Shown: positions 31,286 through 33,495 of the stretch, piece by piece
Layout of the letters: every line of letters starts with the position of its first letter
Numbering within the stretch: the stretch's first letter is position 1
From: a virus
Strand: one strand, 5' to 3'
Virus record (IMG/VR): IMGVR_UViG_3300045988_126426
DNA length: 64,000 nt
The notes under the pieces: generated by a model
Databases searched by the model: none
Told to the model about the DNA's origin: nothing
Seen by the model: only the letters and a program-made list of their open reading frames with translations
Position numbers and translations under genes: made by a program

Positions 31286-32746
31286 ATGATTGAAGTAATT
31301 GGAACAGTGGTACCAGTGGTTATTGCGGTAGGTGGCGTAGGAGCTATTATCGGTAGCGGTTATGTCAAAGCAAGTCCAGATAAAGCTTATATTATTTCTG
31401 GACTTAGAAAGACACCTAAGACATTAATTGGTAAGGCAGGGTTAAAAATCCCATTCTTTGAAAAAGCAGATCACCTTAATCTTGAGTTAATTCCAATTGA
31501 TGTTAAGACATCAAGCTCTGTGCCTACAGCAGATTATATCAATATCAATGTAGATGCAGCAGTCAATGTAAAGGTTAGCAGTAATCCAGAAAGATTAAAA
31601 CTTGCAGCAGAAAACTTCTTAAATAAGCCAGTAGGCAATATTGGACAGGTCGCAAGAGAAGTCCTTGAAGGTAATATGCGAGAGATCGTTGGAAAGATGA
31701 GTCTCGAAGAAATGGTTTCTGATCGTCAGAAATTTGCACAGCTTGTTACAGAAAATGCGAAGCCAGATCTTGCTGCAATGGGATTAGATATTATTAGTTT
31801 TAATGTTCAGAATTTTATGGATGATAATGATGTTATTGAAAATCTTGGTGTAGATAATGTTGTTAAAATCAAGAAGAAGGCTGCGATTTCCAGAGCTGAA
31901 AGCGAAAGAGATATTGAAAAAGCAAAAGCAATGGCTGAAAAAGAAGCAAATGATGCAAAGGTAGAGTCAGCAACAGCGATTGCAGAAAAGAATAACAATC
32001 TGGAGATTAAAAAATCTGAACTTGAAAAGATTTCAAAAGCAAAGAAAGCTGAGGCAGATGCAGCATACAAGATCCAGGAAGAAAAATCACGTAAAGAAAT
32101 TGAAGTTGTAACTGCGGATGCTAATATTATGCGTCAGGAAAAGGAAATTGAACTGAAACGCAAAGACGTTGAGGTAACAGAGCAGACATTAGATGCACAG
32201 ATCAAGAAGCAGGCAGAGGCTGAAAGATATGCTTCACAGCAGAAAGCAGATGCAGACTTATACAAGAAACAGAAAGAATCTGAAGCTAACAAATATGCCA
32301 AAGAAAAAGAAGCTGAATCTACAAAATATGCTATGGAGCAGGAAGCTGAAGGTATTCGTGCAAAGGGTGTAGCAGAAGCTGAGGCGATTAAAGCAAAAGG
32401 TATTGCTGAAGCAGAAGCGATCGAAAAGAAAGCCGAAGCTATGAAGCAGATGGGTAAAGCTTCTATCGTAGAAATGATGTGCCAGATGTTCCCAGAAGCA
32501 GTTAAAAATGCAGCTGCGCCATTAGGAAACGTAGGAAGTATCACTATGTATGGAGAAGGAAATACAACAAAATTAACAAAAGATATTATGAATGTTGTGA
32601 ATCAGGTATCAGATGGTGTTAAAGGATCTACAGGTGTTGATCTTGCAAAGATGCTAAAAGATTTTGTTTCTGAAGATAAAGAAGTAGAATCTACAGATAA
32701 TGAAAATCTTGGAACACCAGAGCTAGCAGATTACCGTGAGTTCTAA
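31286..32746 (+). CDS. flotillin (SPFH/band-7 domain protein, FloT/YuaG-like)
   Basis: N-terminal TM, SPFH core, long Ala/Glu-rich coiled coil 'KGVAEAEAIKAKGIAEAEAIEKKAEAMKQ', and conserved C-terminus 'MFPEAVKNAAAPLGNVGSITMYGEGN'. Confidence 0.85.
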   Translation: MIEVIGTVVPVVIAVGGVGAIIGSGYVKASPDKAYIISGLRKTPKTLIGKAGLKIPFFEKADHLNLELIPIDVKTSSSVPTADYININVDAAVNVKVSSNPERLKLAAENFLNKPVGNIGQVAREVLEGNMREIVGKMSLEEMVSDRQKFAQLVTENAKPDLAAMGLDIISFNVQNFMDDNDVIENLGVDNVVKIKKKAAISRAESERDIEKAKAMAEKEANDAKVESATAIAEKNNNLEIKKSELEKISKAKKAEADAAYKIQEEKSRKEIEVVTADANIMRQEKEIELKRKDVEVTEQTLDAQIKKQAEAERYASQQKADADLYKKQKESEANKYAKEKEAESTKYAMEQEAEGIRAKGVAEAEAIKAKGIAEAEAIEKKAEAMKQMGKASIVEMMCQMFPEAVKNAAAPLGNVGSITMYGEGNTTKLTKDIMNVVNQVSDGVKGSTGVDLAKMLKDFVSEDKEVESTDNENLGTPELADYREF

Positions 32747-32760
32747 TAGGAGTAATTATT

Positions 32761-33495
32761 ATGACAATTATTATTATTTGTGTAATTGTAGCGATTATCG
32801 CATATTTACAATTTACTAAAAATGGAAAGCAGATTAAAAATGTGGCATCTGGAACAGTTACAGAAAAAATCAAAGAAAATGCAATGACTCCAGAGGGAGC
32901 AAGAGCCAGATATAATACTGCAATTAAAGATAAGCAGGATTTCTACCAGAAAACAATGGGTACATACACAATGGTAGCTGGTCGATTGGCAACAATGGAA
33001 GATGACCTCAAAGAAACAAAAGAAGAAATTTCTAAAACCGAGGCAATGATCAACCAGTATATTGATAACAATGATGATAAAAAAGCAATGTATTATGCTC
33101 AAAAATTAGCCACGCTCAAGGCACAGAAATCAGTGTACGAAAAGAAAATCCCAGAGTTGCAAGCGACAAAAGATAAACAAGAAGAAATTAAAAACCAAGC
33201 ATATGATCAGCTCATTAAGTTAAAAGGTGAAAAAGATACTGTGGTTCTCCAGATGGAAGCAGATCAGCAGATTGCAGAATTGCAGAAAAATTTAGACCAA
33301 TACAATAGTTCAAATGCTGCTCAGGAAGGTTTGGAAGAGGTTCGAGAAGGAGCAAAGAAACTTAGCGAACAAGCCAAAGGCGTTGCTATTGCGTATGAAT
33401 CTAGTGCAGAAACATTGGATTATCATATGGAGCAAGAAGAGCGACAGCAAGAAGCTAAAGTCATATTAGATCAGATGAAAAATGCTCGCAAATAA
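32761..33495 (+). CDS. membrane-anchored PspA/IM30 (Vipp1/LiaH)-like coiled-coil protein
   Basis: N-terminal TM helix, then ~220 aa of heptad coiled coil with PspA-like spacing (ARARYNTAIKDKQDF...KAMYYAQKLATLKAQKSVYEKKIPELQ). Confidence 0.4.
   Translation: MTIIIICVIVAIIAYLQFTKNGKQIKNVASGTVTEKIKENAMTPEGARARYNTAIKDKQDFYQKTMGTYTMVAGRLATMEDDLKETKEEISKTEAMINQYIDNNDDKKAMYYAQKLATLKAQKSVYEKKIPELQATKDKQEEIKNQAYDQLIKLKGEKDTVVLQMEADQQIAELQKNLDQYNSSNAAQEGLEEVREGAKKLSEQAKGVAIAYESSAETLDYHMEQEERQQEAKVILDQMKNARK

Follow-up and report, generated by a model that had tools for sequence, protein, structure and literature searches.

A flotillin gene and a gene for a predicted membrane-anchored PspA-like protein share an exchangeable slot among related phages

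Introduction

Why should a phage carry a flotillin gene directly ahead of a gene for a membrane-anchored, PspA-like protein? The question is raised by a 64,000-nucleotide stretch of viral DNA (IMG/VR record IMGVR_UViG_3300045988_126426), here called the window, in which two genes on the + strand, the flotillin gene (ORF1) and the putative PspA-like gene (ORF2), lie 14 nucleotides (nt) apart. PspA and Vipp1 are membrane-stabilizing polymers of the ESCRT-III type, and SPFH proteins are membrane scaffolds. A first-pass annotation, made from the sequence alone, had suggested that the two genes together form a membrane-microdomain or membrane-repair module. We found that the pair occupies a slot in which whole cassettes of membrane and ion-homeostasis genes are swapped between closely related phages, the PspA-like gene being the near-constant element.

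Results

Identity of the two proteins

The two genes, together with the sequence that precedes each of them, are as follows.

31221..31285, + strand: intergenic leader before the first gene of the cassette, with the ribosome-binding site (RBS) AAAGGAG (from the sequence)
31286..32746, + strand: ORF1, FloT-type flotillin of 486 amino acids (aa), with an N-terminal membrane anchor, an SPFH domain, an EA-rich coiled coil and a flotillin C-terminal domain
32747..32760, + strand: 14-nt spacer with an AGGAG RBS for ORF2 (from the sequence)
32761..33495, + strand: ORF2, predicted single-pass transmembrane-anchored PspA/IM30/Vipp1-like protein (ESCRT-III superfamily; phrog_33389) of 244 aa (from profile matches and the predicted fold)

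Both genes and the gap between them lie exactly where the first-pass annotation had placed them, and profile matches confirmed that ORF1 encodes a full-length flotillin, as that annotation had claimed. ORF1 scored above the Pfam cutoff for Band_7 (PF01145; residues 50 to 207; 84.5 bits against 23.6; E = 1.2e-23) and passed that for Flot (PF15975) marginally (27.9 bits against 27; E = 2.7e-6). Its top NCBIfam match was FloT (NF058507; 299.5 bits; 5e-89), which falls below the equivalog cutoff of 700, so that the protein is a member of the FloT family and not a FloT orthologue. Residues 4 to 22 are hydrophobic (mean Kyte-Doolittle value, 2.48) and are predicted from this hydropathy estimate to form the N-terminal anchor, alanine and glutamate make up 40% of residues 331 to 420, and the motif AAAPLGNVGSI is present. 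No PHROGs family matched the flotillin, and neither the window nor its close relatives have a gene for an NfeD/YuaF-type partner beside it. Public databases already hold the protein as one from a Caudoviricetes metagenome-assembled genome (MAG), labelled hypothetical or flotillin.

ORF2 is best described as a transmembrane-anchored, divergent member of the PspA/IM30 (ESCRT-III) superfamily, a relationship predicted weakly for the protein alone and one that holds at the level of its family. Residues 1 to 18 make up a strongly hydrophobic segment of 17 to 18 residues (mean Kyte-Doolittle value, 2.77) that is followed by lysine-rich sequence, and the rest of the protein after this segment consists of about 200 residues of predicted helix. 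The amphipathic helix alpha0 is absent (the hydrophobic moment does not exceed 0.25 in windows starting at residues 19 to 39), and the transmembrane segment stands in its place. ORF2 matched phrog_33389 at 6.5e-22, and its family has 256 representatives at 50% clustering, nearly all of 240 to 260 aa. Against Pfam PspA_IM30 (PF04012), ORF2 alone scored 14.0 bits, below the cutoff of 33.9 (E = 0.039), with profile positions 29 to 217 of 220 covered; 12 of 13 relatives matched the same family, the best at 7.8e-11. Similarly, a search of the PDB with the single sequence gave nothing significant (BRO1, E = 0.28), and only family profiles reached PspA and Vipp1. A 13-sequence profile matched Nostoc Vipp1/PspA structures (6zvr, 8qbr/v/w) at about 5e-4. 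With a 105-sequence profile the values were 2.2e-7 for Nostoc Vipp1/PspA, 4.6e-4 for Synechocystis PspA and 2.6e-3 for Vipp1 sll0617, with generic coiled coils of the tropomyosin type beginning near 1e-3. Aligned with a Nostoc Vipp1 fragment in hhalign, the larger profile gave a probability of 94.2% over 170 columns (E = 1.1e-7).

An AlphaFold2 model of ORF2 (mean pLDDT, 78.9; above 90 in the hairpin) placed helices at residues 2 to 18, 20 to 29, 32 to 41, 44 to 102, 106 to 183, 185 to 205 and 217 to 243, with the hairpin tip at NND 103 to 105, an arrangement that is the alpha1 / alpha2-3 / alpha4 / alpha5 order of PspA and Vipp1. When the model was compared with the PDB in Foldseek, Vipp1/PspA structures made up 10 of the top 13 matches (target-normalized TM-scores of 0.47 to 0.66), led by 6zvr, 9eom and 7o3x (Vipp1; 0.54 to 0.66, normalized in the same way). 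The Foldseek E-values were weak (best, 7.7e-3), as expected of long helical hairpins, and SMC, YscO and other coiled coils were also listed. Thus, family profile, profile-profile comparison and predicted fold agree with the earlier description of ORF2 as a membrane-anchored PspA/IM30-like protein. No PspBCF or LiaI/LiaFSR regulators or anchors were found among the neighboring ORFs scanned with Pfam and PHROGs.

Coupling of the two genes

Flotillin and ORF2 are tightly coupled behind one shared leader. The spacer at 32747-32760 reads tAGGAGtaattatt and is followed by ATG, with AGGAG, a typical Firmicute ribosome-binding site, 8 nt ahead of the start codon. A scan for sigma-70-like promoters and terminators gave none for the + strand from 30300 to 33577, and in total it returned no more of them than shuffled sequence did. 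Homology between the window and two related loci in which the first gene of the cassette encodes an ATPase (L045 and L057, of the ATPase/TerD type described below) spans the leader and the first codons and ends at window position 31291, implying that the same leader and start serve either flotillin or ATPase.

Exchange of cassettes among relatives

We surveyed the best 80 of 202 IMG/VR matches, comprising 78 loci that encode ORF2 relatives and were collected with a 10-sequence alignment, and placed flotillin, TerD, vWA-TerF, P-type ATPase and the flanking genes in these 78 loci by tblastn. The genes directly upstream of the PspA-like gene differed with the identity of its product to ORF2.

ORF2 identity of at least 95%, 35 loci: flotillin directly upstream in 34 and none in one (L038)
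ORF2 identity of 73% or 50%, 13 loci: P-type ATPase, vWA-TerF and TerD directly upstream
ORF2 identity of 38 to 43%, 30 loci: ATPase and three TerD paralogues directly upstream

Because many of these loci are near-identical and were drawn from a single large dataset (3300045988), the counts do not represent independent events. The ATPase-plus-TerD type accounted for 43 of the 78 loci, its ATPase having calcium-translocating PMCA-type enzymes as top match. The flotillin pair accounted for 34, all from one shallow clade. Among the 185,579 species genomes of GTDB there were six matches to ORF2, every one on a MAG contig that also carries an ATPase gene and one or more TerD genes beside the PspA-like gene. 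From this we take the ORF2 subfamily to be essentially phage-borne, with ATPase and TerD as its usual partners; separate look-ups of related contigs agreed on this context.

The 13 loci with vWA-TerF use the same slot as the window, their upstream PM0253-family gene being 83 to 99% identical and their downstream helix-turn-helix (HTH) gene 90 to 100% identical to those of the window. Between the flotillin and vWA-TerF classes the flank proteins are thus 83 to 100% identical, whereas identity of the PspA-like allele falls to 73% or 50%, which implies that the PspA-like gene moves with its partners. In L045, homology to the window restarts at ORF2, where nucleotide identity is 78% against 87 to 94% in the flanks, and in L057 it restarts within ORF2, at 33249. 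We saw no clear segment of ORF2 that co-varies with the partner genes, the hairpin being simply the most divergent part of the protein.

Each gene also occurs without the other. Locus L038 lacks exactly 31221..32745, the leader and the flotillin gene; after its PM0253 stop codon come AAT-ATAGGAG and the start of an intact ORF2, whose spacer RBS is kept. Conversely, L103 and L104 encode a flotillin 85% identical to that of the window and no ORF2, the gene order being phrog_1735, phrog_2018, flotillin and then the HTH gene on the - strand. In L102 (2020-6941) an RNase H-like gene and a calcium-type P-type ATPase gene come after a flotillin gene of 81% identity, a further arrangement drawn from this group of membrane genes, and no TerD or PspA-like gene was found within the 9.5 kb fetched. 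More distant flotillins, in L094 and L095 (71%) and in MT835492/L002 (40%), likewise have no ORF2 within the stretches fetched. The notion that flotillin and PspA-like genes form a conserved unit therefore did not survive this comparison: the pair is restricted to the clade with ORF2 identity of at least 95%, and elsewhere the same slot holds ATPase, vWA-TerF, TerD and PspA-like genes. The first-pass annotation had named two observations that would count against its proposal, the lack of a PspA/ESCRT-III fold in ORF2 and the lack of conservation of the pair as a unit; the predicted fold is PspA-like, and the pair is not conserved as a unit.

One relative, P0018 (related phage contig L010, 8001-9080), has a TerD domain fused to the PspA-like domain, replacing the transmembrane anchor, and is encoded after a calcium-type ATPase gene and another TerD gene. 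Such a fusion suggests a direct functional link between the calcium-binding TerD and the PspA-like polymer. In two loci of the flotillin clade, the flotillin gene is split between two reading frames (L016, 5536-6983) or ORF2 is shortened by a 1-nt length difference (L054, 7001-7474); these apparent frameshifts may be sporadic pseudogenes or assembly errors.

Origin and selection

The nearest cellular flotillins, at about 70% identity, are those of Longibaculum muris and Coprobacillus cateniformis (Erysipelotrichaceae) and of Lachnospiraceae MAGs. In Longibaculum, PadR/HAAS genes precede the flotillin gene and a radical SAM gene follows it. Judged by this similarity, the window flotillin is a gene captured from a host-like bacterium. 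The flotillin of MT835492/L002 is closer to a different bacterial lineage, implying that large phages have captured flotillin at least twice. Within the window clade, 20 distinct alleles of flotillin gave Nei-Gojobori dN/dS values of 0.06 to 0.08 and 24 of ORF2 a value of 0.07, which indicates purifying selection and thus that both genes have been kept functional.

Flanks of the slot

The slot is bounded by three genes.

30888..31220, + strand: left flank, 110-aa gene, PF27390 PM0253 / phrog_20678 (PHROG match; PF27390 annotation in L005)
33626..33767, + strand: right flank, tRNA-like gene whose anticodon loop contains a 70-nt AT-rich insert (ARAGORN intron option; Rfam tRNA)
33807..34025, - strand: right flank, convergent Cro/C1-type HTH gene (Pfam HTH_26, 3.4e-14)

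These genes recur among the closest 48 loci (L014 to L061) whatever cassette lies between them. The PM0253 gene precedes the cassette in 46 of them (83 to 99% identity), the tRNA-like gene just 3' of the PspA-like gene in all 48 (inserts of 63 to 71 nt), and the HTH gene is 89 to 100% identical across them. The tRNA-like gene, which is absent from L103 and L104, scored 40.7 bits against the Rfam tRNA model (gathering score, 29) and was missed by ARAGORN at default settings and found with the intron option; its anticodon is ambiguous, with an ATA or a CAT reading. Its 70-nt insert is far too short to be a group I intron. The gene could be a spliced tRNA, a noncoding RNA or a recombination boundary of the slot.

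A second hot spot of presence and absence lies at 30819-30887, between the phrog_2018 and PM0253 genes. There some relatives carry a 5-kb NAD-salvage module encoding isochorismatase, NAPRTase and NAD synthase, and others about 1.5 kb of extra DNA (L005, 1485-6127; L014 to L056), with nothing in the window.

Phage setting

The window probably derives from a large phage of low-GC gut Firmicutes, a host assignment based on flotillin similarity alone. All of its large ORFs are on the + strand. They encode a DnaB-like helicase, DHH/DHHA1 proteins, PolIII-alpha, several antirepressor-type proteins with Bro-N/ANT domains, TnpB and a tyrosine recombinase; the genes adjoining the flotillin/ORF2 pair match PHROG families to which no function is assigned. 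IMG/VR viral contigs, many of them 140 to 166 kb long, carry near-identical copies of the locus. By tblastn, no match to TerD, vWA-TerF or P-type ATPase was found in the 64-kb window at E values up to 0.01. Three further features of the window are listed here.

14964-16067, + strand: TnpB, IS605-family OrfB (Cas12f-like TNB domain), between two Bro-N-domain genes
28339-30408, + strand: 689-aa protein, phrog_1735, DUF8224, function unassigned (PHROG match and nucleotide comparison)
58369-59634, + strand: LAGLIDADG homing-endonuclease-type ORF, overlapping the last part of a DHH/DHHA1 gene and the first part of the PolIII-alpha gene (59624-62788)

A similar TnpB is also present in the relative L008. 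The LAGLIDADG ORF, which lies in the replication module, probably encodes a mobile endonuclease. At the nucleotide level, the gene at 28339-30408 is 65 to 67% identical to genes of Clostridioides phage pCD1602_4 and of Bacillus Herelleviridae-type phages. Homologues of phrog_1735 occur in many of the latter, sometimes annotated as a galactose-binding domain-like protein, and a phrog_1735 gene accompanies flotillin in three phage lineages (those of the window, MT835492 and L103).

Discussion

What might the pair do for the phage? We consider the chances about even that it is a two-gene accessory cassette serving, while the cell is infected, to protect or condition the cytoplasmic membrane of the host. 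In such a scheme, the transmembrane anchor of ORF2 would replace the amphipathic helix and keep the ESCRT-III-like domain tethered at all times to the membrane's inner face, where ORF2 could polymerize and limit the leakage of ions and protons, as PspA and Vipp1 do. Flotillin may scaffold or recruit ORF2, in the way that YdjI serves PspA, or may tune membrane fluidity, and in the sister phages the calcium-type P-type ATPase and TerD might couple the same PspA-like polymer to calcium. The phage would benefit from a host membrane that stays energized and intact through a long infection cycle until lysis, with the possible added benefit of protection from superinfecting phages or from membrane-attacking abortive-infection effectors.

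Several points weigh against this proposal. The physical or functional link between flotillin and ORF2 is drawn by analogy, and ORF2, a protein rich in coiled coil that by itself scores below the Pfam threshold, is assigned to the PspA family by remote homology. The pair is confined to one shallow clade, so that its recurrence reflects shared ancestry and not repeated selection. Each gene persists alone, ORF2 in L038 and flotillin in L103/L104, L094, L102 and L002, and the closest host flotillin, that of Longibaculum, has no PspA neighbor.

The main rival explanation is that flotillin and the PspA-like gene are independent cargo brought together by a recombination hot spot, each acting alone or with host proteins, and we regard this as possible, although we would not favor it. 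It would account for the precise, gene-sized difference between L038, which lacks 31221..32745, and its relatives, for the flotillins that stand alone in the same slot (L103/L104) or elsewhere with no ORF2 nearby, for the capture of flotillin by large phages at least twice, and for the fact that the region upstream is also polymorphic, for the NAD-salvage module. However, the contents of the slot share one theme (membrane scaffolds, a calcium pump, calcium-binding TerD and the PspA-like protein), which argues against random cargo, and the PspA-like allele co-varies with its set of partners. Flotillin and ORF2, moreover, share one leader and lie 14 nt apart, and an SPFH-PspA link has been established experimentally in Bacillus subtilis (PMC8581546). 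An unlikely alternative is that the cassette is a conflict module that alters the membrane so as to block incoming phage DNA or the membrane proteins of competitors, that is, superinfection exclusion. The slot is highly variable and lies near Bro-N/ANT antirepressor genes, TnpB and small ORFs of unknown function, a setting typical of conflict islands. Ter operons, furthermore, have been reported to confer resistance to phage and to pore-forming colicins. On the other hand, no PADLOC model matched flotillin, ORF2, TerD, vWA-TerF, the ATPase or the flanking genes, so that a known defense system is not supported, and we know of no exclusion protein of the flotillin or PspA-like kind. Exclusion and membrane maintenance predict the same present data, and both can hold together.

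We think it improbable that ORF2 is unrelated to PspA and is instead a generic membrane-anchored coiled coil, for example, a structural or lysis-timing factor, whose likeness to PspA comes from helical composition. Such a reading would fit the 14.0 bits scored by ORF2 alone against a Pfam cutoff of 33.9, the lack of a significant PDB match in the single-sequence search, the weak Foldseek E-values (best, 7.7e-3) with SMC and YscO in the list, and the tropomyosin matches near 1e-3 in the profile search. It fits poorly with the four best PDB profile matches, all of which are Vipp1/PspA structures that lie 3 to 4 orders of magnitude ahead and align in register over about 160 residues, or with the hhalign probability of 94%, the PspA_IM30 matches of 12 of 13 relatives and the Vipp1/PspA structures that make up 10 of the top 13 fold matches. 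The predicted helix lengths and breaks also reproduce the alpha1 / alpha2-3 / alpha4 / alpha5 pattern.

If the cassette does protect the membrane, such phages would bring their own ESCRT-III-type repair machinery and would not rely on the phage-shock response of the host, and the partners of that machinery, a flotillin scaffold or calcium-handling proteins, would be interchangeable. The cassette is also a candidate countermeasure to membrane-targeting antiphage defenses. A more elaborate version, which we advance with considerable doubt, is that large gut Firmicute phages share a swappable membrane-repair slot, with a virus-specific, anchored ESCRT-III/PspA-like core that is mostly wired to calcium through TerD and a calcium-exporting ATPase and in which, in the window lineage, a captured host flotillin has taken the place of the calcium arm, the whole keeping the membrane sealed to the pore-formers of abortive infection, to superinfecting phages or to premature leakage through holins. 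The calcium-wired module, if real, would be a viral counterpart of the calcium-triggered ESCRT-III wound repair of eukaryotes. The natural variants (the pair, each gene alone, the ATPase/TerD versions and the TerD fusion) offer a ready-made genetic series for studying how SPFH proteins, calcium and PspA cooperate.

Comparison with known systems

The most direct precedent for flotillin with ORF2, by analogy, would be YdjI and PspA of B. subtilis, where the SPFH protein YdjI is required for the membrane localization of PspA (PMC8581546). As in the pspA-ydjGHI (samGHI) operon, SPFH and PspA-family genes in the window lie side by side, their products belong to the cytoplasmic face of the membrane, and the setting is that of a Firmicute. 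The two systems differ in that YdjI is a short cytosolic SPFH protein that needs the membrane proteins YdjG and YdjH, whereas the window gene is of the FloT type, and in that ORF2 carries its own transmembrane anchor, B. subtilis PspA being a soluble protein with an amphipathic helix. The gene order is also different, and the window cassette is phage-borne. No Pfam matches to YdjG/YdjH (TPM), CesT/Tir, AAA+ ATPase or YqiJ/YuaF were found in the ORFs flanking the pair.

In cellular genomes more widely, PspA has been linked with Band-7/flotillin proteins (Ravi et al. 2024, PMC11237479; also PMC8581546). The window resembles the CesT/Tir-PspA-flotillin operons of cells (PMC11237479) in linking a protein of flotillin architecture to a PspA homologue; it differs from them as a minimal two-gene phage version that alternates with a calcium ATPase/TerD cassette. 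Ravi et al. (2024, PMC11237479) also described transmembrane-bearing PspA/Snf7 homologues whose operons include genes for ABC transporters and PBPB-OmpA, and in Bacillus phage G (gp247) and MT835556 the ORF2 homologues have the same context. The first of these, in a large Firmicute phage (NC_023719), is 25% identical to ORF2 (2e-10), but its neighbors are ABC transporter genes and OmpA/MotB-domain proteins and not flotillin or TerD. These distant homologues, gp247 (in L001, phage G 168844-179512) and a 276-aa ORF (MT835556, L003), both sit between ABC-transporter genes and genes for OmpA/MotB or PBPB-OmpA proteins, a third set of partners.

Among phages, a close parallel is with the Jug (jumbo gut) phages, of 360 to 402 kb and with Bacteroides/Phocaeicola as predicted hosts, in which terD adjoins a pspA-like gene (PMC12880540). 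The same report describes calcium-translocating P-type ATPases that are carried by gut phages, among them four of 159 to 197 kb linked to Bacillota. The sister cassettes of the window locus have exactly the three genes found there, pspA-like, terD and the calcium-type P-type ATPase gene, whereas the window phage is without TerD and ATPase in the 64 kb available. We found no mention of flotillin or of its alternation with ATPase/TerD in the available part of that report. Elsewhere in the literature searched, the coverage of which is incomplete, we found no description of a phage-borne flotillin/PspA-like pair or of its alternation with an ATPase/TerD cassette, and for phage-encoded flotillin only an unrelated case, the phage Perkons, which integrates into the floA gene of its host. 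The first-pass annotation had called the pairing on a phage undescribed, which stands for the phage-borne pair and has to be narrowed in view of the cellular PspA-Band-7/flotillin links (PMC11237479, PMC8581546) and of the adjoining pspA-like and terD genes described in Jug phages (PMC12880540). Thus, both protein families and the association of SPFH proteins with PspA in bacteria were already known, and what the window and its relatives add is the minimal two-gene form borne by a phage, a nearly phage-restricted subfamily of transmembrane-anchored PspA-like proteins, and a polymorphism in which flotillin or calcium/TerD genes are linked to the same PspA-like core.

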